This document shows positions 3 to 49,186 of a DNA stretch of 64,000 bases, one piece after another. A program made the translations under genes and the position numbers. Below the pieces are notes generated by a model. It had not been told where the DNA came from. It saw only the letters and a list, made by a program, of their open reading frames with translations, and did not search any database. Origin of the DNA: a virus; the IMG/VR virus record IMGVR_UViG_3300023199_000051, positions 114,165 through 178,164 of that record, one strand, 5' to 3'. Numbering within the stretch: the stretch's first letter is position 1; each line of letters opens with the position of its first letter.

Positions 3-701
3 GATCAAGGCACCATCATCTCAGGCGGGCTGTTGCGGGCCTTCAAGTCGGGGTCCAAGGAGGTCTTCGAGATCACTGTAGAAGATTCTGATGGGCGGCA
101 ACGCAGCTTGAAAACTACTATGGGCCACCGTTTCCTTACACCGGATGGGGAGAAGCGCCTGCGGGAGCTGGAAGCTGGCCACGAGGTCTACATCGTCGGA
201 GCGAGGAAGAGGAAGCCGCGCGGTAAGCAGGCCGAAGGCACGCGCAAGAAGTACCTGGTGGTGTCAGCCGTTCACCACCACCCCCACGCTACTTCATGGA
301 TGCGACACCGGAAGAACCGCCCGAACCCCTACAAGGAGTCGCGCGTTCCTCTCCATCGCATCGTGTACGAAGCCCATCTCAGCGGAATCACTACGGAGCA
401 GTTCATTGCGCGAGTGAAGGCGAACGAGCTGGAAGGACTCACCTTCGTGGACCCTAGTGTCCATGATGTGCACTACATTGACGGTGATGCAGAAAACAAC
501 AGCATCAACAACTTGGAGCTGCTACCCGTTGGTGATCACCAGCAGCATCATGCCCAAGAAGGTGCCTGGCGCCGTGTGCTGCCCAAAGCCGTACCGGCCC
601 GTGTGCTTTCCATCGAGCCGAAGGGCATCCAGCCCACCTACGACTTGATGATGGCAGGACCGCACCACAACTACGCTGCTAACGACTTCATCGTGCACAA
701 C
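3..701 (+). mobile_element. Intein (5' partial) with HNH-type endonuclease, inserted in helicase Walker A
   Basis: Block B-like TTMGHRFLT; C-terminal TYDL...HNYAANDFIVHN/C junction (Cys +1 at 702); internal LHRIVYEAH...VHYIDGDAENNSINNLELL HNH motif. Confidence 0.8.
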
Positions 702-2696
702 TGCGGAGCAGGAAAGACGTTCCTGGGCATCCTGTTCAGCTTGTCCTACCCAGGCCGGACCATCATCGTCACAAGGGCATCAACGACGCACCAGTGGGCG
801 GGGCAGTTTCGCAAGTTCTGCCAGGACGGCGCGGTCAAGGTAGCCGTGCTCGACGGCACGAGAGGGTTCAGGGCCAAGCGAGCACCGAAGCAGACATACA
901 CATCGTGGGTCCGCATGCACTTCGAGGCGGAGTCTCCGGGCCGCATTGCGAGTCTCCGAGAGCAGCGGTCGGAGAGCGGACGGCGCAAGGCCATCACCAA
1001 GGCGTTTCGGCGCGTGCTTCGGGCCTTGTTCGAGGCCGGTCCAGAAGGATGCGCTGTGCGGGATCTACCGGGGTCAAGCGGTGCCGTGAGGAATGCCCTG
1101 TCCCGGTTTGAAGATGCGGGCCTGGTCGAGAGGCACGACAAGCCAGACAATTCCGCCTGGAAGCCGTGGGTGGTGCGCAGCACCTTCACGGACCGGATCA
1201 TTTCCTGGCACGATGGCTACGAGGGCCCCATGCTCAAGTCTGGCGAGGTGACATCGCTGTCCCTCATCGAGCAGGCGGAAGATGCGAAGCCCGCTAAGCG
1301 TGCCCACGCGCGAGCGCTGCTCCTCGCGCACAGCAACCTCGACCGCAAGCTCATCGCAGATCGGTGCGGCATGAGCCTTGACGGGGTGCTTGATGTTCTA
1401 GGCGAGCGAGCAGCAGAAGCGAACGCTGAGATGCGTGAAGGAGTGCTGGACATCGAGGATGATACTGACGCCGTCGTAGTCGGGTGGCCCGTGCTCACAG
1501 CCAGGCGACGCGCGCTCATCAACTGGGGGAAGCAGGATGAAGCGCCCCTCACAGTCATCCTCGACGAGAGCCACAACGCCAAGCAGTGGAGCCGCTGGCG
1601 TGCAGTCGACGAACCTGACGGGTCGGTGAGCTGGGAGCCGAAGAGCAACACATCGGCATCTGCCCTCCTGATCTGCGGAGAAGCTGAACGGGTGCTGTGC
1701 CTCACGGCAACACCGCAACCCGATCGGACCCGAGACCTCTGGGCACAGCTCGATCTCATCGATCCGTGGTCCTTCGGCAAGTTCCGGGTCTACGCGATGC
1801 GCTATTGCGGTGCGATGTACAACGAGTACGGCATCGACAGCCGCGGCAGTAGCAACCAGGAGGAGCTGCACAAGCGGCTCGGCTTCTACTTCCACATCGT
1901 CACCGAGGAGGAGGCCAAGCGCGAGCTGCCGCCCCTCACGCGCGACATGGTGTGGCTGCCACCGGCCGAGCTGGCTTCGGTCCGCGTCTCCAAGCAGCGA
2001 TGGATGGCTGCCAAGCGGAGAGGTGCCACCGCACTGCTGGAGCTGAAGCTGTGCGTCACAGCCGCTATGAAGCACCCGTGGCTGGTGAAGCGTGTCAAGG
2101 ACTGCATCCTCGATGAAGAGAAAGTCGTGCTGTTCAGCGGCCGGCGCAACGACGCTGAGAACCTGCTGGTAGCTGTGCAGGGCATGGTAGCGGCTGAGCG
2201 CAAGAAGAAGAGGCACGACAGCACTTACGACGACTTTGAGGTCTGGATGGCGCATGGTGGACAGTCGAACAAGGAGCGTGCCGAGATCCTGAAAGCCTAC
2301 ATCGCACACGACGGGCCGGGGCTCATCATTGGGACCATCGACGCTTGGGGGGAAGCCATCGACGGCCTGCAGAGCACGAACCGGGCACTGATCTCCATGC
2401 TGCCTTGGAACCACGGCAAGCTCATCCAGCTCGAAGGCCGCTTCGACCGCTTGGGGGGCAAGGTGGCCACTACGCTGGAGTACGTGATCGCCGAGATGAC
2501 GGTCGACGAAGACGTGCTCGACCACGTGGTAGTGAAGGCGGAAGATGCGGGGGAAGTGCTCGGTGATGGAGAGCTGATCGAGATGAGCGCAGTCCTCGAC
2601 GGCGTCCAAGACGAAGAAGAGATACTCAAAGGCTTCGCCGCCAAGCTGCTCGCCGCTGAGAAGAAGCGCAAAGAGAAGAGGGAGCAAGCAGCATGA
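3..2696 (+). CDS. SNF2-family SF2 helicase, intein-containing, 5' partial (frame open from window start)
   Basis: After the intein: CGAGKT (motif I), ILDESHNAK (II), LTATPQPDR (III), QLEGRFDRLG (VI). Confidence 0.85.
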   Translation, partial: DQGTIISGGLLRAFKSGSKEVFEITVEDSDGRQRSLKTTMGHRFLTPDGEKRLRELEAGHEVYIVGARKRKPRGKQAEGTRKKYLVVSAVHHHPHATSWMRHRKNRPNPYKESRVPLHRIVYEAHLSGITTEQFIARVKANELEGLTFVDPSVHDVHYIDGDAENNSINNLELLPVGDHQQHHAQEGAWRRVLPKAVPARVLSIEPKGIQPTYDLMMAGPHHNYAANDFIVHNCGAGKTFLGILFSLSYPGRTIIVTRASTTHQWAGQFRKFCQDGAVKVAVLDGTRGFRAKRAPKQTYTSWVRMHFEAESPGRIASLREQRSESGRRKAITKAFRRVLRALFEAGPEGCAVRDLPGSSGAVRNALSRFEDAGLVERHDKPDNSAWKPWVVRSTFTDRIISWHDGYEGPMLKSGEVTSLSLIEQAEDAKPAKRAHARALLLAHSNLDRKLIADRCGMSLDGVLDVLGERAAEANAEMREGVLDIEDDTDAVVVGWPVLTARRRALINWGKQDEAPLTVILDESHNAKQWSRWRAVDEPDGSVSWEPKSNTSASALLICGEAERVLCLTATPQPDRTRDLWAQLDLIDPWSFGKFRVYAMRYCGAMYNEYGIDSRGSSNQEELHKRLGFYFHIVTEEEAKRELPPLTRDMVWLPPAELASVRVSKQRWMAAKRRGATALLELKLCVTAAMKHPWLVKRVKDCILDEEKVVLFSGRRNDAENLLVAVQGMVAAERKKKRHDSTYDDFEVWMAHGGQSNKERAEILKAYIAHDGPGLIIGTIDAWGEAIDGLQSTNRALISMLPWNHGKLIQLEGRFDRLGGKVATTLEYVIAEMTVDEDVLDHVVVKAEDAGEVLGDGELIEMSAVLDGVQDEEEILKGFAAKLLAAEKKRKEKREQAA

Positions 2697-20325: not shown

Positions 20326-23300
20326 GTGAGCGTGCTCGGTGATGTCAGTCCCGCCGTCCCCTCCTCCCTACCTCTCGACCAACGCGACCCAGCCGTAGGG
20401 GCAACCGACCCCCGCGAGCTGGGTTGCCGCTGTGATGAGTGCTACCTCGGGCGTCAGTTTGCAGCGCTGGGGCACGATGCTCCTGTACTCCCCGAGGTGC
20501 ACAAGCATGATGCCGAAGTGGCCATCATCGCCGAGGCTCCGGGTGCGCAGGAGGAACGACGCAAGCGCCCCCTCATCGGACCATCGGGTCGCGAGTTGAT
20601 GCGCGGGCTGTCGAAGTTCGGTATCGAGCGGCAGGACGTCGTTCTAGACAATGGTCTGATGTGCTTACACGGAGACTCGAAAGTTCTCCTTGGGGATGGC
20701 ACTGCTCGGCCCATCCGACAGCTTGTCGCCGAGAGGTACGACGGCGAGGTGATGTCTGTCGACTCAGAGGGGCAGCTGGTTCGCCGCCGGATCATCGGGT
20801 GGTACCGCAACAAGCGTGCTGGCCGTCGCCTCTTCAAGGTGTCGTCTAGACGGGCCAAAGGGGTCCGTGTTGGTGTAGTAGGGCCCATCGTCACAGAGGA
20901 TCATGAGATCCGCGCAGTGGACGGCAAAGATGGCGGCGTGCGGTGGATCCCAGCGGCTGAGATTGCCATGCGTCCTGATCGCTACTCGGTCTTCACGCGC
21001 GATCCCCGACCGAAAAGTGGCTCGGCAGCAGCGGATGTCGTTGCTGGAAGCCTCCTTGGCGATGGCACTATCTCCAAAGGCAAGCGCTGCATGCAGATCG
21101 GCCACGGGGCTGATCAGGAGGAGTGGCTTCGCCTCAAGCAGCGCGCGCTTGGTGATCTGGCCCAAGACAGGATCACGCGCGTCTCGGCGGACAAGCTCAG
21201 CGGCACCCAGGATGCCCTGTACTTGCGCACAGTGCCAAGCCGGTACTTTGCTGGCTTGCGGCATGATCACTACAACGAAGACAGCACACGCCGAATCCCC
21301 GAGCATTTTTCTCTCACCGCCCGTGCACTGGCAGTCTGGTATCTGGATGATGGGCACCTCCGACTCCGGCAGGGTAGGCGCCCCCGAATCTCCATCAACC
21401 AGACAAAGCTGCAAGGGCCTGATCTAGCGCGGTTGTTGCGTGCGTTAAAGCAGCGCCTCGGGCTGCGAGCTACTACAAGCTCCAAGGGGCGCATCTCCTT
21501 TGATGCCGCGAACACCCAGCGGCTGCTGGGGCTCATTGCCGGGATGGTACCGCCGTGCTTGGAGTACAAGACACTCCCCAAGCTGCGAGGACTGTTCAAC
21601 CCAGACTACTGGCAGCCTTCCACTGCAGTGTCGGTGGCAGATGATCCCATCATCGAGGAGGTTGAACGTCGCGGCACGTCGGTCTTCTGTGTCGACGTCG
21701 AGGAGACGCACAACTTCGTGACTACTGACGTGGTGGTACACAACTGCAGACCTCCCGACAACAAGCTCAAGCGCGTCATGCACGCACACGGCAAGATCAA
21801 GAAGGCCGCAGAGGCGAAGGCCAAGGAGCAGCGGCAAGAGAACAAGAAGCGCCGCAAGCTCGGAATGCCTCAGCTGCCCATTGAGCCGGTTCCGCCCTCC
21901 CCTATCGAGTGCTGCCGCCCCCACATCTTGCAGCGCGCGCAGCATACCCCGAACATCATCGCGCTGGGCGCGACGAGCTTCTACTCGATCACTGGAGAGC
22001 AGAAGGCCATTCGCAAGCTACGGGGGGCCTTCGTCGATCGGTGGCTTGTCGAGGACAAACACGGCAACCTCGACGTGTGGAAGCCTCCTTCCAGCCTCCC
22101 GCAAGACGGGATCGCTGCCGCTACCCCAGAGGGCGCACAGCACCTCCGCATCGTCCCCACGCTCCATCCAGCCTACGTGCTGCGCTCACCTGCGTGGCGT
22201 GAAGCCTTCCAGCAGGACATCGGCCGCTTTGTGCGGTGGATGAAGGGGGAGCTGGAGTGGAAGGAGCCATGGCTTGTCGTCAAGCCCAACTACCAACAGC
22301 TCAAGGATTGGCTGTACAGCGCCGATGTGTCTTGGCACGCGACAGATGCCGAGACAGATCCGGTCGGCCGCCCAATGATCGGCAAGGACGGCAGGCAGCA
22401 CGGGCCGGCACCTATCGTGCCTCAGATGCGGTGCCTGTGCTTCTCCTCTCCAGAAGGGAGCATGGTGGTCCCCTTCCGGTCCATCCGCTTCGTCGAGAAC
22501 GAAGCGGGGGTGTCGACAGGGCACTACCGATGGCTCGGGCGACGGGGAGACGAGCAGTTCACCTTCTACCCCCAGGCCGAGGCCCAGGCCATCTGGGAGC
22601 TGATCCGGCACTGGCTCATGGACCCGAGCCGGTTGAAGGTAGGCCACAACAGCCGGTACTTCGACGCCGCCGTCTACGTCAACGAGTTTGACCTGCCCGG
22701 ACCGCCCGCCAACCACATCGACACCATCATCATGTTTCGGGCTTACAACTCAGAGATCACGCGCGACCTGTACACGCTCGGGACAATGATGACCGATGTG
22801 CCCTCCTGGAAGGGAGGCGACAGCGGCAGTGTTGCCCTCAACACCAGGTCCGACATGGACCTGTGGGAATACAACGGCGTCGACGGAGCGGTCACCGCTC
22901 GGTGCGCGAAGAAGCTGCTACCGCATGTTCACCGCCGGCAGCAGCAATCCGTCGTCGAGATGGACTTCCAGGTACAGGAGATCGCGCGCGGCATGAAGCG
23001 CCTGGGCATGTACGTCGACGAGGACAAGCGGAAGGAGCTGGAAGCAGGCCTGCAAGGCCAGAAGCGAGCGCACCGTGGCCGCATCAAGGACATCGTTGGC
23101 TCCAGCGACTTCAACCCCAACAGCTTTCCACAGGTCGGCCGCCTGCTCTACGAGGACTGGAAGCTGCCTATACTCGGTGTGTCCGAGGACACGGGGGAGC
23201 CGTCAACCGATGACGACACGCTGCGAGCCCTCATCCACGCCAAGGTACTCGATGAACAGCAGGAGGAGATGGTTCTAGAACTGCGGCGGCTCCGCAAGGT

Positions 23301-25287
23301 GAGCAAGGAGCTGTCCACCTACGTCACGAAGCTGCGCCCCTGGAACGACTACCGCAAGAACAGCAAAGGCAAGCTCGTCGGTGGTCTGGTGGGCCCGGAC
23401 GGCCGGGTGCATCCCGACTACAATGTACACACACCCTCAACTGGCCGATTGTCCAGTTCAAACCCTAATTGCTTTGATGCGGAAACGGAGATCCTGACCA
23501 GCAAGGGATGGGTACGCTTCGACCAACTGCTTGAAGAGCACCGGAAGGGGGAGGCCCATCAGGTAGCTCAGTGGAGCCTAGACGACGAGCAGATCAGCTT
23601 CGTAGCACCCGAGGCGTACCACGAGCATGACTATGACGGTGACATGGTGCAGCTGCAGCACCAGTCCGCCGACCTGTTGATGACCGGCAACCACCGAATA
23701 CCCTTGCGAAACAGGAAAACGGGCAAGGTGAAAACGGTACATGCGATTGACATACCTCGCCCCAAGCGGTCCCCGTCCGACTGGCAGACGGTGCACGCGG
23801 GCCACTATGCAGGCGGGAAGGGCCTTGACCTGACTGAAGATGAAGTGCGCTTCCTTGTTGCGGTGCAAGCTGATGCCCACATCAGGAAGGATGGATACGG
23901 CCTGGACTTCGGGTTCTCTAAACCACGGAAGATCAATCGCATACGGAGTCTGCTCCGCATGCTGGGCTACAACTTTTCGGAGTACCCAGGGGAAGACCGG
24001 ACACGCTTCTACGTCCCGCTGTGCTATCGGCTAGAGCGGCTACTGAAGTGGCTTGGCCCCAAGAAGACCTTTGGCCCGTGGGTTCTCGACTTGTCCCGCG
24101 GCCAGTTGGACGTCATGCTTGAGGAGGCCTGGTTCTGGGATGGCTGCTACACGCGTAAGAGCCAGTTTGCCAGCTCGATCAAAGGAAACGCCGACTGGGT
24201 GCAGACCGCTATCGCCCTCTCTGGAGTTCGGGCCAATCAACGAGTGTACCTCGGGAGCGTCAGCCCCAGCTACCAGGTAGATGTAAAACGGAGGAAGTAC
24301 AACGCCATCACGCACAAGGCAGTCGTAGAGACCAGCCACTACACCGGCAAGGTCTACTGCGTCACCGTTCCGAGCAGCTACATCGTTGTTCGGCGCCAGG
24401 GCAAGATCACCATTACCGGCCAGTCACAAAACTTTCCGAAGCATCTTCGGTCTATGATCATCCCGGCTCCAGGGCACTGCTTCGTGGGCGCCGACTACGA
24501 CCAGATCGAGCTGCGGCTGATCTGTGCTTTGGCGGGGGTCGAGAGCTACCTGGCTACCTTCCGCGGGGGTGGCGATCCGCACGCGGTGACCGCGCTGCTC
24601 ATCTACGGCGACATCTTCAAGGCCGAGCTGCGGAAGTCCCTGACGCGTGGTGAGTGGGCCTTCTACCAGAAGACGGGGGCGCCACCGAAGGCGCAGGACG
24701 AGAACGCTACCGACATGTACGTGTCGCTTCGGAGGTTCGCCAAGACCTTCGTGTACGCCGTCATCTATGGCGGATCGGCGCAGACTATCTACAACTCGGT
24801 GTCTGCGGCTGAGGACGACAATGGCAACCTGCTCTTCCCTGACATGAAGCTGGGTGAGGTCAAGGCGTCGTACCGCTCCTGGATGCGCAACGCGAAGGAG
24901 ATTCCCGCCTACTGGGACACGCTGACCACCTTCGCCAACAAGCACAAGTACCTCGTGGAGCCCATCGGAGGCCGGCGCCGTGACTTCTACAACCCCCGTC
25001 ACGAGCGCAACGAGATCCTGAACTTCCCCATCCAAGGGGGTGCCGGCATCATCATGGGCCGGGGCCTCATCAAGCTCGTTGATGTGATGCCCTTCGACTT
25101 CGCGGGCGAGTTTACGGGCGTGGTCAATCAGTGTCACGACGCGGTGACCTGTGAAGCACCGGATCGGGACCGCGACATCCGACTCGCCCGAGAGCGCATC
25201 CAGGAGAGCCTGGAGTGTGAGCATGGCGGCATGCACTACACGGCCGAGGCGAGCAAGGCTGTCTACACCTGGAAGGAGGCTGCATGA
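20326..25287 (+). CDS. polA: Uracil-DNA glycosylase (family 4)-DNA polymerase A fusion with two inteins
   Basis: UDG: AEAPGAQE, GPSG, CRPP, LHPAYVLR; exo: DAETD, GHNSRYFD, YNGVD; pol: TGRLSSSNPN/SQNFP, ADYDQIELR, RRFAKTFVYAVIYG, CHDA. Confidence 0.93.
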   Translation: MSVLGDVSPAVPSSLPLDQRDPAVGATDPRELGCRCDECYLGRQFAALGHDAPVLPEVHKHDAEVAIIAEAPGAQEERRKRPLIGPSGRELMRGLSKFGIERQDVVLDNGLMCLHGDSKVLLGDGTARPIRQLVAERYDGEVMSVDSEGQLVRRRIIGWYRNKRAGRRLFKVSSRRAKGVRVGVVGPIVTEDHEIRAVDGKDGGVRWIPAAEIAMRPDRYSVFTRDPRPKSGSAAADVVAGSLLGDGTISKGKRCMQIGHGADQEEWLRLKQRALGDLAQDRITRVSADKLSGTQDALYLRTVPSRYFAGLRHDHYNEDSTRRIPEHFSLTARALAVWYLDDGHLRLRQGRRPRISINQTKLQGPDLARLLRALKQRLGLRATTSSKGRISFDAANTQRLLGLIAGMVPPCLEYKTLPKLRGLFNPDYWQPSTAVSVADDPIIEEVERRGTSVFCVDVEETHNFVTTDVVVHNCRPPDNKLKRVMHAHGKIKKAAEAKAKEQRQENKKRRKLGMPQLPIEPVPPSPIECCRPHILQRAQHTPNIIALGATSFYSITGEQKAIRKLRGAFVDRWLVEDKHGNLDVWKPPSSLPQDGIAAATPEGAQHLRIVPTLHPAYVLRSPAWREAFQQDIGRFVRWMKGELEWKEPWLVVKPNYQQLKDWLYSADVSWHATDAETDPVGRPMIGKDGRQHGPAPIVPQMRCLCFSSPEGSMVVPFRSIRFVENEAGVSTGHYRWLGRRGDEQFTFYPQAEAQAIWELIRHWLMDPSRLKVGHNSRYFDAAVYVNEFDLPGPPANHIDTIIMFRAYNSEITRDLYTLGTMMTDVPSWKGGDSGSVALNTRSDMDLWEYNGVDGAVTARCAKKLLPHVHRRQQQSVVEMDFQVQEIARGMKRLGMYVDEDKRKELEAGLQGQKRAHRGRIKDIVGSSDFNPNSFPQVGRLLYEDWKLPILGVSEDTGEPSTDDDTLRALIHAKVLDEQQEEMVLELRRLRKVSKELSTYVTKLRPWNDYRKNSKGKLVGGLVGPDGRVHPDYNVHTPSTGRLSSSNPNCFDAETEILTSKGWVRFDQLLEEHRKGEAHQVAQWSLDDEQISFVAPEAYHEHDYDGDMVQLQHQSADLLMTGNHRIPLRNRKTGKVKTVHAIDIPRPKRSPSDWQTVHAGHYAGGKGLDLTEDEVRFLVAVQADAHIRKDGYGLDFGFSKPRKINRIRSLLRMLGYNFSEYPGEDRTRFYVPLCYRLERLLKWLGPKKTFGPWVLDLSRGQLDVMLEEAWFWDGCYTRKSQFASSIKGNADWVQTAIALSGVRANQRVYLGSVSPSYQVDVKRRKYNAITHKAVVETSHYTGKVYCVTVPSSYIVVRRQGKITITGQSQNFPKHLRSMIIPAPGHCFVGADYDQIELRLICALAGVESYLATFRGGGDPHAVTALLIYGDIFKAELRKSLTRGEWAFYQKTGAPPKAQDENATDMYVSLRRFAKTFVYAVIYGGSAQTIYNSVSAAEDDNGNLLFPDMKLGEVKASYRSWMRNAKEIPAYWDTLTTFANKHKYLVEPIGGRRRDFYNPRHERNEILNFPIQGGAGIIMGRGLIKLVDVMPFDFAGEFTGVVNQCHDAVTCEAPDRDRDIRLARERIQESLECEHGGMHYTAEASKAVYTWKEAA
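20662..21744 (+). mobile_element. Intein 1 (361 aa, LAGLIDADG) in the UDG domain
   Basis: Starts CLHGDSKVLL, ends HNFVTTDVVVHN, +1 Cys of CRPP; GSLLGDG and WYLDDG motifs. Confidence 0.9.
23470..24423 (+). mobile_element. Intein 2 (318 aa, Gln-terminated) in the polymerase domain
   Basis: Starts CFDAETEILT, ends VYCVTVPS...ITITGQ, +1 Ser restores NPN-SQNFP; degenerate LAGLIDADG motifs (VQADA, WFWDG). Confidence 0.88.
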
Positions 25288-36390: not shown

Positions 36391-36569
36391 CGAGCGGTCC
36401 AGTGCTGCACTACAGCACGGTCACCGCTCGCAGGGACCCTTGATCCTTGAAAACCAGCGGGTGTGTTAGCGAAAACGCACTCGTAAGCTGCTGGTGCCAG
36501 CAGCCTAAAAGGCACCCGCTCGCACAGCTACCCGGAGCCCCGCTCTGTGTGCGAATCGTGAGTAGGGAG
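36391..36569 (+). promoter_or_regulatory. CRISPR leader 1 (structured, boxA-like element 36440-36454)
   Basis: Two blocks near-identical to leader 2; TTGATCCTTGAAAAC. Confidence 0.8.
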
Positions 36570-37502
36570 GTCGCAGCGGTCTGCTGACTGCTGCGTGTGT
36601 TGGAGCGGCCTGCACAGCCCGCCGTCATCGAGCCCGTGCACGGTCGCAGCGGTCTGCTGACTGCTGCGTGTGTTGGAGCATCGCAACCGTGTCAAGCTGG
36701 TTCGTCGGCATCGGGTCGCAGCGGTCTGCTGACTGCTGCGTGTGTTGGAGCTGCGTGGCGAGGTGCTCCGCCCAGATGGCGTCTGGTCGCAGCGGTCTGC
36801 TGACTGCTGCGTGTGTTGGAGGTAGTCGGAGGAGTCGATGGCGCCGCGGGGGTGGTCGTCGCAGCGGTCTGCTGACTGCTGCGTGTGTTGAAGGCGACTG
36901 GAGCTGCGCACCTTGTGCCGGGCAACGCGAGGTCGCAGCGGTTTGCTGACTGCTTCGTGTGTTGAAGGGTCATCGGCACCCGGCGCACGATCGGGATGCC
37001 ACTTCGTCGCAGCGGTCTGCTGACTGCTGCGTGTGTTGGAGGGTCATGGTGGTCTCCGCTAGCATCGCGGAGGACCTCGGGCGCAGCGGTCCGAGGGCTG
37101 CTGCGTGTGTTGGAGCGCGGAAGTACCGGGCTTCGACCTGGGCGTCTGTTGCCTCCGGCGCAGCGGTCTGCTGACTGCTGCGTGTGTTGGAGAGAGGCGT
37201 GTGTTGGAGGTGGGATGGGTGGTCATCGGATACCATATTCATGCTCGTCGCAGCGGTCTGCTGACTGCTGCGTGTGTTGGAGGCCCATCCGGGAGGTCAT
37301 CGACGACCTCGCCGAGCAGGTCGCAGTGGTTGAGAGGCCGCTGCGTGTGTTGGAGGATCAGGAAGAAGGCCAACTGGAAGGGGCGCCACTCGGGGCCGCA
37401 GCGGTCTGTTGACTGCTGCGTGTGTTGGAGCCCGTTTCCGCCCTTCAGAAACACTGTGCCGGCGGGGTCGCAGCGGTCTGCTGACTGCTGCGTGTGTTGA
37501 AG
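36570..37502 (+). CRISPR. CRISPR array 1: 13 repeats, 12 spacers
   Basis: Repeat GTCGCAGCGGTCTGCTGACTGCTGCGTGTGTTG(G/A)AG plus a C/G (37 nt); 9-bp hairpin; distal repeats diverge; possible degenerate repeat at about 37543. Confidence 0.98.
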
Positions 37503-37613
37503 CCACGACGAGCCGGGCGTGTATATCGGGGAGCTGCGTCGGGGCGTAGCGGTCGGAACTCCATTGCACGAAAAGGCAGTTTATGCCTGCAATATGAAGA
37601 ATTGTGTGCGGTT

Positions 37614-41628: not shown

Positions 41629-42432
41629 ATGGATACTGCGACCCACCGAAGAGGTGCGGACCGTGACCAGCACGTCACGCTCCGCCTCTGGGGACTGGAA
41701 GCGCTGTGGACGCCGGCGCACGTCCGGGCCAACCCCTACAGCTACCCGGTTCCGACCTACAGCGCGTTGAAGGGCGTCCTTCGCGCCATCTACTGGAAGC
41801 CGCCCTTCGAGTACGAGCCCTTGTGGGTGTCCGTGCTCAAGCCGATCCGGTACGAGACCCGATCGATGATCGGAGTGGTCAACACCCTGGCACAGGCTGA
41901 CAAGGACCCTGACGGTAACGGCGGCCGTACTCGCTACACGCAGAGCATCCTGTGGGACGTCGACTACGTGGTGCGGGCGCGGCTCGTCAAGAACCCCCAC
42001 TACCCGCACAAGACGCTGCATGCGTACCACCAGGAGATTCTGCGACGGATGCGGCGTGGCGAGCAGTATGGGCCGCTGTACATGGGCAAGTCCGAGTTCG
42101 CCGCCAACTACGAGCTGATCGAGGAGGGCGACGAGCTTCCAGCCCCGCAACCCATCACGATGGACCTGGGGAGCATGCTCTTCGATCAGATCCCCCTACA
42201 GCTGGGCAGCTGGCGCAGCCGGAGGAGGTGGCGCAAGCGGAAGGCTGCAGGCCGCAAGGTCAGCAAGCGGGAGCCCTGGAAGCAGGAGCTGATGCCCGTG
42301 TTCCACAAGGCCACGATGCAGGGCGGCGTGGTTCACTTCCCGGCCGATCTGATGGACCGCTACCGCGACCAGATCTTCGAGGCGCGGGCCAAGACCCACC
42401 AGGACACGAGGGGGGACCATGTTGCTGCTTGA
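41629..42432 (+). CDS. cas5: Type I-C Cas5 (Cas5d)
   Basis: LRLWG...SYPVPTYSALKGVLRAIYWKP...VLKPIRY...ILWDVDYVV...LYMGKSEF matches the Cas5c/d pattern. Confidence 0.92.
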   Translation: MDTATHRRGADRDQHVTLRLWGLEALWTPAHVRANPYSYPVPTYSALKGVLRAIYWKPPFEYEPLWVSVLKPIRYETRSMIGVVNTLAQADKDPDGNGGRTRYTQSILWDVDYVVRARLVKNPHYPHKTLHAYHQEILRRMRRGEQYGPLYMGKSEFAANYELIEEGDELPAPQPITMDLGSMLFDQIPLQLGSWRSRRRWRKRKAAGRKVSKREPWKQELMPVFHKATMQGGVVHFPADLMDRYRDQIFEARAKTHQDTRGDHVAA

Positions 42433-44362
42433 CAAGCTGATCGAGCGATCGCGTCATACCCAGGTGCTCCCAGGATACGCCAAGTCCGAGTTCTCTGTTG
42501 TGCTGCACGTCGGGAAGGATGGCACCTTCAAGGGCATCGAGGTGCTCGATGAGCCTCGCACCGAGATCGTGCCCACCAATCCGGTCAGGACAAGCTCTGT
42601 GGTGGCAATGACTGCCATCGACAACGCGCTGTACACCCTGGGGGCCGCGCCTCCTGGCCGGTCTGCCGAGTGGGTTGCGAAGCGCCACCAAGCGTACCTC
42701 GGCATGCTGAGCAAGATCGACCACCCTGCATGCAGGCTGATCGAGAAGGCACTGGCGCAGAGCCCAGCCGTGGTGGGGTGGGACAAGCAGGTGCCCACGC
42801 AGGCGCAGCTTGCCCAGGTCATGGAAGCTGATGAAGTACAGCGCACCGGGCCTGGCAAGAAGGCGCTGATCAAGCGTGGAAAACTGACGCCGAACAGCCA
42901 GGTGGTGGGCGCGCACAAGTGCGCCATCACCAGCGCAGCTCGCTACGTAGACGCAGCCTCTGTGCTGCATGTGTCGGGCCTCAGCGACAAGTCGATGATC
43001 CTGATTGACGTCGAGGGCCACGAGCAGTGGTGGTGCGATCCCGCTGTGGACGCGGTGCACACCAGGCGTCGGCTGGAGGCCAACAACCGAGAGGGGACAC
43101 CCCGCATGTGGCCGTGCTCCCTGTGCGGGGAGACGCGCACCATCACCCGGCTGTTCCGCTCCAGCCACGTCCTGAGCGGTGGCCTCATCAGCTTCAACGG
43201 AGCTGCGTGGAGTGGCTACAACCGCAAGCAGGGCCGCTGTGCACCTACGTGCATGGAGTGTGCAGAGCGCATCGGCATCGGCCTCGACGCCATCCTGCGC
43301 ACCCCAGGCACGCTCAAGTGGCTGGGTGGGGAGGAGGACTATCGGCTTGTGTGGTGGGCTGACGATCCCGGCAAGCCGGGCCCGTGGCCTGCGCTCAGCA
43401 AGGCGCTCGACATGGAGACGCCCGACGAGGATGCGGAGGAGCTGCTCAGTCAGATCACAGCCGGCCAGCTCATCAGCCTCACTCAGCAGGAGAAGCGTCT
43501 GTCGCTACGGCGTCACGTCCAGGTGGACCCCGAGGTGGTGCGGGAACGTGTCATGCGGTGGCGGCGCGTCCACCGCCGCTTCCTGGGGGAAGACCGGCAA
43601 GCATGGCCCGTGAGCACCGCTCATGCGTTGCGCTTCGATGGAGCCACGAGGCAGGCGAAGCTGTCGAACCGGAACCCCGGACTCCTGCGGCGCCAGGAGA
43701 TGATCTACCTGTACCTCCTCGGCGGACAGCCGTTCTGCCGACGAGAGACCAACTGGGCGCAAGCACTGTTGGACAGGCAGCACCCCGACGACCACCAGAA
43801 GACAACCAACCTGCGCCGGGCGGCGTTTCTGACGTTCGCCGGTGCTCCCTACCAGCAGGAGAAAGACATGGAGTTCGCAGTGACTGCGTACGACGACAAG
43901 GGACGTCCGATCAGGACGTGCCGAGCCCCGGAGGAAAGCAACCTCGACCTGGCCGAGCTGGCCGTGTTCTACCTCGGACGCGCCCTCGCTCGGGCAGCCG
44001 ACAACCAGACCAGTGGGGGTCGCTCCGTCCAGACGCGCGTCGACAGCACCTACAGCAACCTCGTGAAGCGGCGCCCCGGCGACGTCTACAGGATCATCAA
44101 GTCCAGCTACAGCCAGTACGAGTTCTTCAACGAGAAGACGCAGCGCCGGACGAAGGTCGACGACAAGGTGATGGAGGTACTGCTGAGCCGGACGGTGGAG
44201 TTCCAGCCGCTCAACGGCCTCCCTGCCCCCATGGATCCCCGCCAGTGCGTCATCTTCGACAAGGGCTACTACTTCCAGCGCTTCCTCCGGGATGCATACA
44301 TGGAGGTGTGTGCGCAGGAGGCTGCCGAGGAGGAGGCTGCCGAGGAGGTGGCTGCCAAGTAG
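42419..44362 (+). CDS. cas8c: Type I-C large subunit Cas8c (Csd1)
   Basis: RTSS...DNALYTLG; CSLCG...LISFN..AWSGY.RKQG..AP; FYLGR; position between cas5 and cas7. Confidence 0.88.
   Translation: MLLLDKLIERSRHTQVLPGYAKSEFSVVLHVGKDGTFKGIEVLDEPRTEIVPTNPVRTSSVVAMTAIDNALYTLGAAPPGRSAEWVAKRHQAYLGMLSKIDHPACRLIEKALAQSPAVVGWDKQVPTQAQLAQVMEADEVQRTGPGKKALIKRGKLTPNSQVVGAHKCAITSAARYVDAASVLHVSGLSDKSMILIDVEGHEQWWCDPAVDAVHTRRRLEANNREGTPRMWPCSLCGETRTITRLFRSSHVLSGGLISFNGAAWSGYNRKQGRCAPTCMECAERIGIGLDAILRTPGTLKWLGGEEDYRLVWWADDPGKPGPWPALSKALDMETPDEDAEELLSQITAGQLISLTQQEKRLSLRRHVQVDPEVVRERVMRWRRVHRRFLGEDRQAWPVSTAHALRFDGATRQAKLSNRNPGLLRRQEMIYLYLLGGQPFCRRETNWAQALLDRQHPDDHQKTTNLRRAAFLTFAGAPYQQEKDMEFAVTAYDDKGRPIRTCRAPEESNLDLAELAVFYLGRALARAADNQTSGGRSVQTRVDSTYSNLVKRRPGDVYRIIKSSYSQYEFFNEKTQRRTKVDDKVMEVLLSRTVEFQPLNGLPAPMDPRQCVIFDKGYYFQRFLRDAYMEVCAQEAAEEEAAEEVAAK
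43868..44362 (+). CDS. cas11: Cas11 small subunit by internal in-frame translation
   Basis: AGGAG (43857-61), 6 nt, in-frame ATG; 164 aa containing FYLGRAL. Confidence 0.65.
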   Translation: MEFAVTAYDDKGRPIRTCRAPEESNLDLAELAVFYLGRALARAADNQTSGGRSVQTRVDSTYSNLVKRRPGDVYRIIKSSYSQYEFFNEKTQRRTKVDDKVMEVLLSRTVEFQPLNGLPAPMDPRQCVIFDKGYYFQRFLRDAYMEVCAQEAAEEEAAEEVAAK

Positions 44363-44444: not shown

Positions 44445-45368
44445 ATGACCACCCCCCACACCCCCACCACCTTCGACCCCGACTATGGGCTCCCCTGCGA
44501 CCCCAGGCAGAGCATGACCATGGTCGTGCTGCTGAGCTGCTACCACGGCATCCTCAACATGCGCCCAGACGGCTCTGGAGAGCCCCGCATGGACCCTGAC
44601 GGGCACAGCACCGCGACCGGCGAGTGCATCAAGCGCATCTGGCGCGACGGCGTGAAGATCGCAGGCGGCCTCGACCTCCTCTACGAGCGCGACTGCGACA
44701 TCGGGGACCGCACGTCCCCCTACGTCATCAAGAAGGGCAAGGAGGCGGGCAAGCTCGACCTCGAACGGATGTGCGCGGACTTCTGGGATGCTCCCCTGGG
44801 CACCCCGGCCACGGCGGCGAAGAAGCAGGCCGCGCTCCGCAGCGCACTGACCGTGCAGCTCTCGCGCAGCGTCGACGAGGTGCTCCCCGACCTGGAGCAC
44901 TTCGCTGGGACCATCGGCAACACCAAGGAGCGGGACGGCGCAGGTGACAGCAAGGAGAGCTACCTCTCTCGCGCCTTCAACACGCGCTTCCGCGTGCCCT
45001 TCGCCACCTACGTCACGCCCGTGATCTACCACCCGATGCTCGGCGCGAAGTACGGGATCACGCCTCAGTGGTTCCAGTCGCTGTACACCGGCATGATTGA
45101 CGGTCCCGAACACATCCTGTCCACCCAGCGGTCGGACCTCCGCGTGGAGGGGGTGTACGTCTTCACCACGTCGAAGATGCGGGGCGGCGAGCGCAAGTGC
45201 GACACCGTCAGCCGCGTGAAGATCGCGTGCAAGGAGGGCGTCATCGGAGGGCGTGCCAAGCGCTTCAGCGACTACGAGATCACCGTCGACGACGACATGC
45301 CCCCCTGGATGCAGCTCTACAGCTACGTGCCCGCCCTGCAGCGCAGCGAGCAGGCCGCCGCCAAGTAG
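44445..45368 (+). CDS. cas7: Type I-C Cas7 (Csd2), divergent
   Basis: GILNMRPDGSGEPRMDPDGHSTATGECIKRIWRD parallels NGNPNGDPD..NxPR.D....VTDVCLKRKIR; VQLSRSVD. Confidence 0.88.
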   Translation: MTTPHTPTTFDPDYGLPCDPRQSMTMVVLLSCYHGILNMRPDGSGEPRMDPDGHSTATGECIKRIWRDGVKIAGGLDLLYERDCDIGDRTSPYVIKKGKEAGKLDLERMCADFWDAPLGTPATAAKKQAALRSALTVQLSRSVDEVLPDLEHFAGTIGNTKERDGAGDSKESYLSRAFNTRFRVPFATYVTPVIYHPMLGAKYGITPQWFQSLYTGMIDGPEHILSTQRSDLRVEGVYVFTTSKMRGGERKCDTVSRVKIACKEGVIGGRAKRFSDYEITVDDDMPPWMQLYSYVPALQRSEQAAAK

Positions 45369-45397: not shown

Positions 45398-47719
45398 ATG
45401 AAGTACAAGCCCCTCAGAGCGTGCCAACAGAGCGCGCTGGATTCCATGATGCCTCTCGACTGGCGCACCTTCGTCCTCGCCGCTCCAACCGGCAGCGGTA
45501 AGTCGTGGGTGATCGCGGGCCTCGCGTACCTCAACCTCAGGTGGCAGGGGAGACGTCCTGCCTGCTGGGGTGACGCCTCCGAGGTCAAGAAGGTCATCGT
45601 GGCCACTCCGATGCAGCACATCGAGAGCGGCTACGTAGACGAGGCGTGCTTCCATTACTCCGCGGAGGGGGTCCGCACGCCGCTGCGCGTCAAGGTGGCC
45701 GAGGACTTCTGGCTGCGCGTCCGGGAGATGAAGGGTGCGGCCGGGGACAACCTGCGCAAGCTCGTGTCCGGCGAGAAGGGCACGGGTGGGCGGGCCATCC
45801 TCACGTCACACCAGCTCCTTGTGAGCGTCTACAAGGACGGGGGGTTGCCGGCCGACATGAGCGACACGATCATCATCCTCGATGAGGGCCACCACCACGG
45901 GGAGTCTCCTACTGCGATCTACCGCGTGGTTCAGGAGATGAGGCGGCGAGGAGCCCGAAGCGTGCTGCCAACAGCGACCCCTCTCCGGTCTGATGGACAT
46001 GCGCTCCACGCAGTCAGTGATGGAGTGAAGTGGCACATCACAACCTACTCCTCACTCGCCAGGCGGAAAGAGGCCCCCTCCAAGCTGTGCCTGGACGTAG
46101 CCACCAGCAGTGCAGGGGGACGCGCACGCGACTACTTGCTGGGGCAGGACCTCGACCTCATCGTCGACAAGGCACTGGCCTACCGCGACGAGAGCGGTGC
46201 CCTCAGACCTGTACACATCCACCTGCCGCCGTCCGCCTACAAGGGCCAGGCATACGCCGTGGCCCAGCTGGTGATCGAGCGGCTTGTGGCCCGTGGTGTG
46301 CCTCGCAGCGTCATCCTCGACACGACCTCGACCGAAGACACATCGGAGGAAGTGTCGAAGAAGACGCAGCGCGTCCTCAAGGCGGAGAACGCGCGCATCA
46401 AGGAGGGAGGCTACGAAGCCGCCGCAATCCGGGTCGTCATTGACTGCAAGCGCTTCGGTGAAGGTGCCAACCTCCCGACGCTGTCGCATGTCATCCTCGT
46501 CGGCGTCACGCAGTCGCTGGCACATCTCATCCAGATCATCGGACGCAGCACGCGCTGCAAGCTCCCACCGGCTCTCGCAGGATACCCAGAGCAGTGGCAG
46601 GATGAAGTCCGCGTCACAGCGCTGGTGCCTCACCTTGACAGCCCGACTGCCATCGAGGACCACGCAGCGCGGATCGTCATGCTGTCCTGCCTCTTGGAGT
46701 GCTCGACAGCCGCCTACGACATCGAGTGCTTCTGGGCCCCCTACGCTCCTGGGATGCGCCTGCCGCCTCGCACGCCTATCACAAAGGGCGACGTATCTCA
46801 GCTGGCTCCGCTCTCCCCGGAGGAGCGGGTAGAAGGGGCCATGGTAGGCACGAAGGCCGCCGCACGGCTGTGGAAGCTGTATGGCCGCATGCCGACCATC
46901 GAAGAGCTGCTGCGGGAGGTCGGGATCATCCTGGGCGGCGAAGACCGGACGGTCCTGGAGACCATCCTTAGCCAGGCCGCCGAGGCAGATCCGGCAGTAG
47001 CTGCATCACTGGAAGAGGCCGCCGCCGATGTCTGCGACCGGCTTCAAGAAGCCTTCGACCAGGAAGACATCAAAGACAGGTCCGAGCTGACGGCCTGGTA
47101 CGAAGAGCACATGCACGACGCCCTCAAGCAGGTTGCCAAGAACCACGCCGATCTCACCTACCCTCACCATGTAGGAGATCGTCTGGTGGGACTCAGCAGC
47201 GTCCTGTCAGCAGACCGCATGGCCAAGATCGTCGCCGAGATGGAGACGGGCCGGGACGCAGCCTTCAACACGATGAGCCTCCCCGAGATCATCGAGAACA
47301 CCATCAACCCCTTCATAGCGAAGCACAAGAAGCTGCCGCAGCTCGACGATCCCATGTGGCTCGACTCCGCCTACCAGCACGACTACCAGATCATGCGTGC
47401 CGTCGATCGGCACCTGCGCAGGAAGGGCATCAGCTTGTCGCATGCAAACGCGCTACGGCAGTACCTCCACCAGGGTCCAGTCGACAAGGCCACCATGAGC
47501 CTCGTCCGGCAGGTCTTTGCGGGGCGGCGGCTTCCAATGTTCACCGTCGAGGATTGGAAGAAGCCCAGCCAGCTCGCAGCTGCAATGCAGACACCGCGGC
47601 TCAACTTGCAGCGGTACGGTGTCCGTGGCGAGAGCCTGCTGCACCTGACCATGTGCGCTCGCTACGGCTGGAGGGGCTTCGAGGGAGGTCAGTCGCTCCC
47701 CGAGGCCCTTGGCCTCTAG
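45398..47719 (+). CDS. Cas-associated SF2 (ResIII-like) helicase lacking an HD nuclease domain
   Basis: AAGGAG RBS, ATG 45398; APTGSGKS starts at residue 29; ILDEGHH, TATPLRSD, GEGANLP, QIIGRSTR. Confidence 0.88.
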   Translation: MKYKPLRACQQSALDSMMPLDWRTFVLAAPTGSGKSWVIAGLAYLNLRWQGRRPACWGDASEVKKVIVATPMQHIESGYVDEACFHYSAEGVRTPLRVKVAEDFWLRVREMKGAAGDNLRKLVSGEKGTGGRAILTSHQLLVSVYKDGGLPADMSDTIIILDEGHHHGESPTAIYRVVQEMRRRGARSVLPTATPLRSDGHALHAVSDGVKWHITTYSSLARRKEAPSKLCLDVATSSAGGRARDYLLGQDLDLIVDKALAYRDESGALRPVHIHLPPSAYKGQAYAVAQLVIERLVARGVPRSVILDTTSTEDTSEEVSKKTQRVLKAENARIKEGGYEAAAIRVVIDCKRFGEGANLPTLSHVILVGVTQSLAHLIQIIGRSTRCKLPPALAGYPEQWQDEVRVTALVPHLDSPTAIEDHAARIVMLSCLLECSTAAYDIECFWAPYAPGMRLPPRTPITKGDVSQLAPLSPEERVEGAMVGTKAAARLWKLYGRMPTIEELLREVGIILGGEDRTVLETILSQAAEADPAVAASLEEAAADVCDRLQEAFDQEDIKDRSELTAWYEEHMHDALKQVAKNHADLTYPHHVGDRLVGLSSVLSADRMAKIVAEMETGRDAAFNTMSLPEIIENTINPFIAKHKKLPQLDDPMWLDSAYQHDYQIMRAVDRHLRRKGISLSHANALRQYLHQGPVDKATMSLVRQVFAGRRLPMFTVEDWKKPSQLAAAMQTPRLNLQRYGVRGESLLHLTMCARYGWRGFEGGQSLPEALGL

Positions 47720-47729
47720 TTTCATGCTG

Positions 47730-47908
47730 CGAGCGGTCCAGTGCTGCACTACAGCACGGTCACCGCTCGCAGTGACCTTTGATCCTTGAAAACCAGCGAG
47801 GGCTGCTGGCCAAGCAGCTCCGTGAAGTACCTTCTCACTGCATCGCAGAGGGGACCGCTCGCACAGCTACCCGGAGCCCCGCTCTGTGTGCGAATCGTGA
47901 GTAGGGAG
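47730..47908 (+). promoter_or_regulatory. CRISPR leader 2 (boxA-like element 47779-47793)
   Basis: Shares blocks with leader 1; starts 10 nt after the helicase stop. Confidence 0.8.
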
Positions 47909-49186
47909 GTCGCAGCGGTCTGCTGACTGCTGCGTGTGTTGGAGCGTGGTGCGGGTGGCGCCGGTGTCCAGCCTCCGACCCTGTCGCAGCGGTCTGCTGA
48001 CTGCTGCGTGTGTTGGAGCAAAGGTCGCCGTTGCAGAACGGTACGTGGCCCAGCGTCGCAGCGGTCTGCTGACTGCTGCGTGTGTTGGAGCGAAGAGGGC
48101 GGCCGGACAGCGCCCACACCCGAGTTGTCGCAGCGGTCTGCTGACTGCTGCGTGTGTTGGAGCGAGACCACCGGCAACACCTCGGGTCTCATCCGCCACT
48201 GGTCGCAGCGGTCTGCTGACTGCTGCGTGTGTTGGAGCCCTCGCGTGGTCGGTATGGTCGAGCATGCCCACCGAAGTCGCAGCGGTCTGCTGACTGCTGC
48301 GTGTGTTGGAGCGCGATCTGCGCGGCACCGGACACGTGCAGGTCTAGCGGTCGCAGCGGTCTGCTGACTGCTGCGTGTGTTGGAGCGAGTGCACGTTCCA
48401 GGTCCTCGACCAGGACCAGGCGGTCGCAGCGGTCTGCTGACTGCTGCGTGTGTTGGAGCCCCAAGAAGAGGGTGGTGGTCAACCTCGCCCCGGCCGGTCG
48501 CAGCGGTCTGCTGACTGCTGCGTGTGTTGGAGAGAGGCGTGTGTTGGAGCCGCTGCCGCTCAGCACCCGGAACATCGGTCGCAGCGGTCCGAGGGCTGCT
48601 GCGTGTGTTGGAGCGTGCCAGAGATCCGGCTCGTCTCTGGGTGCTCCAACACAGCCGCAGCGGTCTGCTGACTGCTGCGTGTGTTGGAGAGAGGCGTGTG
48701 TTGAAGCACCACATTGGTGGGCTCCGCCCCCTCCGCCCCCTTCTGTCGCAGCGGTCCGAGGGCTGCTGCGTGTGTTGAAGCGACGGGACCGGGCGGCACA
48801 GGCCAGCATCCTTCCGAGGTCGCAGTGGTCCGAGGGCTGCTGCGTGTGTTGAAGCTCGATCGGCGAACTCGACCGGGTGATGGGTCGACTGAGTCGCAGT
48901 GGTCCGGGGGCTACTGCGTGTGTTGGAGGGGCGTCTACCACGGCACCGTGCACCACGTGGTCATGGCGCAGCGGTTGAGAGACCGCTGCGTGTGTTGGAG
49001 GAAAGGGGCCCGGGGAAGGGTCATACCGTCCGTCATGGGCGCAGCGGTTAGCTGACCGCTGCGTGTGCCGAAGGCGTGTGTTGAAGGTCGATCATGTGGA
49101 GGCCGTGCTGGCGGTCGCAGCGGTTCGATGATCGCTGCTTGTGTTGGAGGGTGGGTGGAAGGCTGGAAGGGAGGCGTGTGTCGAAG
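47909..49186 (+). CRISPR. CRISPR array 2: 17 repeats (to 49149), 16 spacers, plus degenerate tail
   Basis: Same repeat as array 1; first 9 copies identical; distal variants keep the hairpin. Confidence 0.98.

Follow-up and report, generated by a model that had tools for sequence, protein, structure and literature searches.

One spacer of a phage-borne, type I-C-like CRISPR system, the eighth spacer of its second array, is on the evidence of its sequence derived from a ComM/YifB gene of a bacterium, and the phage that carries it encodes a ComM-like paralogue of its own. The explanation that we favor is that the spacer was taken from the comM gene of the host, that it now guides a nuclease-free Cascade-helicase complex which would block that gene, and that the copy carried by the phage is spared; taken as a whole, we consider the chances of its being right to be evenly balanced.

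The virus record is 178,164 bp long and complete, having direct terminal repeats and a CheckV completeness of 100%; the window analyzed here is its final 64 kb. The GC content of the phage genome is about 0.64. Genes for phage replication in the window encode a family A DNA polymerase with an intein, helicases of the SNF2 and SF1 types and a methylase. Both the SNF2-type helicase and the polymerase (window 33-2696 and 20326-25287) contain intein/homing-endonuclease insertions, with Intein_splicing, HNH_3 and LAGLIDADG_2 domains in these ORFs, and the N-terminus of the polymerase ORF is a UDG-superfamily domain. Besides the terminal repeats, the recombinase content of the phage is limited to an Xer-like tyrosine recombinase. 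The Cas7 protein of the phage recurs in three samples besides its own, and the phage is present in metagenomes JGI 3300023214 and 3300022725 and in SRR23862440; queries with Cas8c and the CRISPR repeat found no relatives of the phage in IMG/VR.

Array 2 (47909-49150, + strand) consists of 17 repeats and 16 spacers, and array 1 (36570-37503, + strand) has 13 repeats of the same repeat family. Each is preceded on the + strand by a leader (47730-47908 for array 2 and ~36391-36569 for array 1), and the two leaders are near-identical, sharing blocks of 69 and 54 nt. The repeat unit is 36/37 nt long and reads GTCGCAGCGGTCTGCTGACTGCTGCGTGTGTTGGAG followed by a variable 37th base. In array 2, repeats 1-8 do not differ from one another; those farther from the leader are degenerate but retain the hairpin, with its stem maintained via compensatory changes. 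Since in both arrays the leader lies on the left and the repeats decay toward the right, + strand transcription is the simplest reading for both. As RNA, the repeat forms a 10-bp stem closed by a loop of 4 nt and then a tail of 11 nt, which is the layout of type I-C repeats; in type I-C systems, Cas5c cleaves at the base of the hairpin stem. Across the 30 repeats (e.g., at 36606, 36822 and 48459), base 37 is C in 17, G in 10, A in 3 and never T. In type I-E systems the last base of the repeat is derived from the PAM, and the variable base 37 would fit a last repeat base of the same origin here.

In both arrays, a partial copy of the repeat 3' handle (AGAGGCGTGTGTTGGAG or GCGTGTGTTGAAG) comes after several of the distal repeats and leaves over-long “spacers” of 45-55 nt (partial duplications at window positions 37193-37209, 48533-48549, 48690-48706 and 49074-49086); the copies look as if the repeat had been duplicated by slippage or otherwise aberrantly where the arrays are oldest. 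The hexamer GGTCAT occurs six times in the 28 spacers (36606-37466 and 47945-49113), against 0.23 expected, a count reached in none of 20,000 shuffles, and its complement ATGACC does not occur in these 28 spacers at all. Both A1S6 and A1S7 start with GGTCAT, and the reverse complement of A1S7, GGAGACCACCATGACC, has the look of a ribosome-binding site plus start. Either Val-Ile codons (GTC-ATC) in the sense direction or gene starts with Met-Thr in the antisense direction could account for the excess; a codon-usage likelihood test gave no signal of strand bias in the spacers. When the 28 spacers were compared with the array-masked 178-kb genome (blastn-short), only chance matches of at most 16 nt were found, with no sign of self-targeting.

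Between the two arrays lie genes for an HTH/sigma-4 protein, a GHKL-type ATPase, Cas5c, Cas8c, Cas7 and a 773-aa SF2 helicase. The type I-C effector trio was detected by Pfam, NCBIfam and PADLOC, with all cas scores under the NCBIfam equivalog cut-offs: cas5c (41629-42432, +; 267 aa; PADLOC Cas5c E 1.9e-32), the likely pre-crRNA endonuclease; cas8c/csd1 (42419-44362, +; 647 aa; E 1.9e-19), the large subunit and likely PAM reader; and cas7/csd2 (44445-45368, +; 307 aa; recognized by all three), the backbone subunit. The SF2 helicase/translocase (45398-47719, +) occupies the position of Cas3 and has no HD domain. It begins at the Walker A region and matches Cas3 profiles weakly (E about 0.002-0.005). 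About 40 full-length homologues share 27-33% identity with it, and in their alignment the motor motifs are kept and the C-terminal 350 residues have no conserved His or Asp. The AlphaFold model (pLDDT 82.5) has an all-alpha C-terminal half and matches motors of the Snf2, FANCM, HsdR, RecQ and RadD types, with no nuclease fold. Identification of this protein as Cas3 was rejected, with no matches in the PDB by sequence and fold matches to generic SF2 motors, Cas3 not being among the matches listed.

No nuclease domain was found in the helicase by Pfam, by PDB sequence search or by fold search, and neither the Cas3 HD nuclease domain (PF18019) nor Cas1 (PF01867) has a match anywhere in the 178-kb genome, so that the premise of the first-pass annotation, a system with no nuclease, holds. 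The helicase is probably a dedicated partner of the Cas5c-Cas8c-Cas7 Cascade, because a homologue occupies the equivalent place in an independent locus on an unrelated 187-kb contig (L077:3759-11400; GCA_040384165.1, contig JAWVHB010000134.1). There, a 248-aa gene comes after cas5d-csd1-cas7 and is itself followed by the 746-aa homologue of the phage helicase and by an array of at least 13 repeats (GTGAATCCGCGCGTGCGCAGCGCGCTGCGTTGAAAC). Upstream in that locus is a gene with a GmrSD_N domain.

Spacer 8 of array 2 (48459-48496, +) is 38 nt long and has the sense of comM codons ~60-72. If the C at the 37th position of the preceding repeat is counted as repeat, the spacer is 37 nt long (48460-48496); this first C may be a spacer base, a repeat base or a PAM-derived base. 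Translated from 48460, that is, in frame 2 of the 38-nt coordinates, the spacer reads PKKRVVVNLAPA followed by a G, and 12 of 12 residues, together with that first base of the next Asp codon, fit the signature of the N-terminal (ChlI/Lon-like) domain of ComM/YifB, P-x-[KR]-[KR]-[IV]-x-[IV]-N-L-A-P-A-D, of which P-x-[KR]-[KR]-[IV]-x-[IV]-NLAPA is near-universal in 121 ComM homologues. PKKRVVVNLAPA itself is the second commonest variant of the motif, found in 21 of the 121. Codons for Ala, Pro, Gly, Arg and Val are enriched in GC-rich sequence, and the likeness might on that account be a coincidence in a GC-rich 38-mer. However, a 12-column matrix built from 123 ComM motifs gave spacer 8 a score of 45 bits and the next best of the 28 spacers a score of -20 bits, and only five of 200,000 38-mers sampled from the phage genome exceeded 20 bits, all with a score identical to that of spacer 8; we take these five to be drawn from spacer 8 itself, since the arrays were left unmasked in the sampling run. 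The matrix scores effectively refute coincidence, the probability of which we regard as negligible.

To find the protospacer, a codon-degenerate pattern of the spacer was run on species genomes, JGI metagenome contigs and viral contigs. The pattern took only CTN for Leu, so that genes with a TTR Leu codon (e.g., G007), which would have at least two mismatches, fell outside it. It matched once in 185,579 species genomes and seven times in the JGI metagenome contigs. All eight matches continue with D[LI]PK, as expected of a ComM context, and the species-genome match (L001) is a full ComM by Pfam (ChlI PF13541, Mg_chelatase PF01078, Mg_chelatase_C PF13335); the ComM protein matches likewise have ChlI, Mg_chelatase and Mg_chelatase_C domains in precomputed annotation. 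The closest DNA came from a search of relatives of the genome with the species-genome match: G035 has 4 mismatches in 38 to spacer 8, followed by G007 (identical to metagenome loci L012-L014) and G001 with 5 in 38 each. Among ComM proteins with the exact 12-mer, the comM DNA of P0015 (from the G007 lineage) and of P0002 has 5 mismatches. A 3-mismatch pattern run over 401 genomes of the candidate phylum matched only G035 and G006. Across species genomes, JGI metagenomes, IMG/VR, INPHARED phages and the ~450 genomes searched, every candidate protospacer had at least 4 mismatches.

G035, G007 and G001 are GC-rich genomes of 7-10 Mb in which the closest comM genes are chromosomal, and the ComM protein cluster of their clade carries the NCBI name “Myxococcota bacterium.” The restriction of mismatches to synonymous sites is partly built into a codon-degenerate query, and 4-5 synonymous mismatches are about what would be expected of any GC-rich gene encoding this peptide; the nucleotide matches therefore do not single out one lineage or host, and all that they indicate is that the source of spacer 8 is a canonical ComM gene of a GC-rich organism. 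That this comM belonged to the host of the phage is probable. In the G007 lineage, which of these lineages comes nearest to the phage in GC content, the comM of metagenome locus L012:1001-2531 (P0015) is annotated as a protein of 448 aa that lacks Mg_chelatase_C, and a 66-aa ORF overlaps its end; this gene may be frameshifted or truncated.

In the three closest comM genes (G035, G007 and G001), the 5' flank reads CTT/ATT/GTT and is followed by a C that aligns to the first base of the spacer. TTC is the canonical PAM of type I-C systems, and if the spacer is counted as 37 nt, flank and C together would constitute such a PAM, as seen in homologues of the protospacer; base 37 of the repeat coincides with the C of this TTC. 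The first-pass annotation had read the spacer as encoding the ComM/YifB signature followed by a G and had expected a host-gene target beside a TTC-like PAM. The reading of the signature is confirmed, in a real 17-repeat array, and a candidate PAM appears as TT plus C beside the homologues just described. The host-gene target is borne out in part, in that the source is a ComM gene and the closest genomes are Myxococcota by name, but no match closer than 4 mismatches in 38 ties it to a particular host. A best match in a phage or plasmid, a match in a gene other than comM and a host match with no adjacent PAM were all looked for, and none was found.

Spacer 8 is the last spacer ahead of the decay of the repeats, which suggests that it is old and that its target may have drifted since. 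The other 27 spacers had no match in six genomes of the candidate host clade and no credible match in INPHARED phages, and for the two leader-proximal spacers none was found in IMG/VR; the targeting of host genes is thus not a visible habit of the two arrays.

The ComM-like gene of the phage lies outside the window (G000:C1:17768-19027, equivalent to L023:1438-2697) and encodes a 419-aa AAA+ protein with ChlI and Mg_chelatase domains that is 41% identical to Myxococcota ComM over 338 residues. By eye, it has no Cys-rich insert and is missing most of the C-terminal domain. A DUF6908 gene is situated just upstream, and the Xer-like tyrosine recombinase 5 kb upstream. At the site homologous to spacer 8, the phage gene reads PRKRIIVSIDAD, with SIDADG in place of the NLAPAD motif, and its 17 mismatches in 38 nt would make the phage copy safe from its own guide. 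When the phage genome was compared with 35 comM loci by blastn, matches were confined to the spacer and to the AAA+ core of the ComM-like gene, and no att-like core common to phage and comM was found. The presence of this gene shifts the reading from the guarding of an attachment site, which had also been suggested for the spacer, toward the targeting of the host copy by a phage that keeps its own.

We therefore propose the following sequence of events for a phage that keeps its own ComM-like gene. The coding strand of a bacterial comM/yifB would have supplied spacer 8, from a site directly 3' of a TTC PAM and most likely in the chromosomal comM of the GC-rich host of the phage, for which the names of the ComM clusters suggest a member of the Myxococcota; acquisition would need Cas1-Cas2 of the host acting in trans. 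The array would be transcribed on the + strand, and Cas5c would cleave the transcript at the stem base of each repeat; the resulting crRNA would have a 5' handle of 11 nt, and its guide would have the sense of the comM mRNA. Because the guide has the sense of the coding strand, it would pair with the template DNA strand of comM and not with the mRNA. Cas5c-Cas8c-Cas7 would then form an R-loop at codons ~60-72 of a gene of ~510 codons and recruit the dedicated SF2 helicase that stands in for Cas3, with the outcome that transcription of comM (or DNA transactions there) is blocked, and not that the DNA is cleaved. Since the system has no recognizable nuclease, a transcription roadblock is the most economical and most likely outcome, and it is this absence that points to silencing of comM by the guide. 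The net effect would be a host in which ComM is down and a ComM-like protein from the phage is present.

Natural transformation can remove mobile elements, and we speculate that the phage would benefit either from blocked transformation or from the substitution of its own motor for the host ComM. In its fullest form, the proposal is that a nuclease-free Cascade-helicase switches off host comM and that the phage supplies a spacer-immune mini-ComM, without the zinc-binding insert and the C-terminal lid, and in this way takes over branch migration and recombination or stops transformation-based curing without any insertion into the gene; this fuller form is tentative, and we lean against it.

Two other explanations accept that the spacer comes from a comM gene. 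In one of these, it was taken from the chromosomal comM of the host as a fortuitous by-product of acquisition in trans, has no selected function and is tolerated since the effector does not cut. The complete genome has no Cas1, and trans acquisition is documented for the nuclease-free type IV-A3 systems (bioRxiv 10.1101/2023.06.23.546257); moreover, a recognizable host gene is seen in only 1 of the 28 spacers, and that spacer is located where the intact part of its array ends, on the old side. Against this, the sole identifiable spacer matches a gene of which the phage has a paralogue, divergent exactly at that site, a coincidence whose chance per spacer we put at well under 1% if host fragments were captured at random (a rough estimate, not a computed one). 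The nearest homologues of the protospacer have a canonical PAM flank, and the same pattern of targeting and replacing a host gene is reported for sigma-70 (PMC7162821). We consider a functionless by-product unlikely on these grounds.

Competition with other phages and mobile elements is the commonest use of phage-borne arrays, and the protospacer might accordingly lie in a comM-like gene or fragment on a competing element, either a phage with a captured comM or a comM-integrated element with a replacement end, so that the spacer would serve phage-phage or phage-MGE competition. The presence of a comM-like gene in the phage itself means that such genes do occur in this virus group, ComM homologues are also encoded on 14 contigs of IMG/VR, comM is known as a hotspot of integration (PMC11441513) and phage arrays often target other phages (PMC7162821). 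Nevertheless, the codon-degenerate pattern had no match in 2.9 million viral contigs against the eight in bacterial and metagenome collections; in none of the 14 viral loci was the NLAPA motif found (six have SLSPA/SLAPA at the homologous place and the others gave no pattern match) and all but one are low in GC; and the phage's own copy reads SIDAD. The orthologue in a close relative would be expected to resemble the phage gene, whose identity to the spacer is only 55%, and where the surroundings of a match were examined they proved chromosomal (in one case an 8.7-Mb genome with a ComM gene, in the other a comM with recA downstream). ComM was found in 24 of 50,697 phage records, several of which are bacterial contigs or record ends; given this rarity and the viral homologues without NLAPA, a bacterial chromosome is the more likely source of spacer 8, and our prior expectations, too, favor a chromosomal rather than an MGE-borne target. 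A target on a mobile element is, in our judgment, improbable.

If host comM is the target, as our preferred explanation has it, the phage would provide a second and independent example of a nuclease-less phage CRISPR system aimed at a host gene for which the phage has a replacement, and would link phage CRISPR to the control of host recombination and competence, via a gene that many mobile elements disrupt. Spacer 8 would also provide a concrete guide, target and PAM for an uncharacterized I-C-variant Cascade-helicase, for which repression, displacement and recruitment of another nuclease are all possible mechanisms. Even if spacer 8 were a neutral by-product, it would still indicate a Myxococcota-like host and the acquisition of spacers in trans.

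The system most like this one is the type I-C variant of huge phages, in which a helicase protein is present instead of Cas3 (Al-Shayeb et al., 2020, Nature, PMC7162821). Both are phage-borne sets of cas5(c/d)-cas8c-cas7 in which Cas5 is the likely processing enzyme, with a non-Cas3 helicase and no Cas1; the published variant lacks both Cas1 and Cas2, and the likeness is one of gene content, the helicases being compared by description. They differ in that the present system is found in a 178-kb phage, where two arrays with duplicated leaders flank the operon and array 1 is separated from cas5 by genes for an HTH/sigma-4 regulator and a GHKL ATPase. One huge-phage spacer targets the host sigma-70 gene, and the same phage encodes its own sigma-70; repression was proposed for such nuclease-less phage CRISPR systems (PMC7162821). 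As in that case, a phage spacer here matches a housekeeping gene, probably of the host, of which the phage has its own version, which suggests a substituted host function, but the target is comM, which encodes a recombination and branch-migration helicase and not a transcription factor, and the published host match is exact whereas the best match here has 4 mismatches in 38.

In comparison with the canonical type I-C system (Dvulg), the phage shares Cas5c, Cas8c and Cas7, the TTC flank (here beside the nearest protospacer homologues) and a repeat with a GTCGC start, a hairpin and an 11-nt tail, which ends in TTGGAGC where the canonical tail ends in TTGAAAC; unlike it, the phage has neither Cas3 (HD plus helicase) nor Cas1. 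Type IV-A systems, with their DinG helicase, were reported to suppress gene expression (PMC11519345), and they resemble the phage system as nuclease-free, MGE-borne class 1 effectors with an accessory helicase and no adaptation module. The effectors differ, however (Csf in type IV-A, Cas5c/Cas8c/Cas7 in the phage), as do the helicases (an SF2 motor of the DinG/XPD type in the former, a Snf2/HsdR/RecQ-like motor in the latter), and repression has been demonstrated for type IV-A whereas for the phage system it is suggested by what the genome encodes.

Efficient natural transformation needs comM, the product of which drives branch migration in that process (PMC6158740; PMC11612176). Its disruption benefits mobile elements, and the AbaR islands of Acinetobacter achieve this by insertion (PMC11441513). 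The phage would likewise be a mobile element that interferes with comM, but its interference would be RNA-guided, reversible and insertion-free, and no evidence of integration at comM was found; if the proposal is true, the phage system would be the RNA-guided counterpart of the insertional inactivation of comM by other mobile elements. Thus, both the type of system and the logic of targeting a host gene while keeping an own copy are already published (Al-Shayeb et al., 2020), and what is new here is comM as the target, together with a spacer-immune, ComM-like paralogue in the phage.
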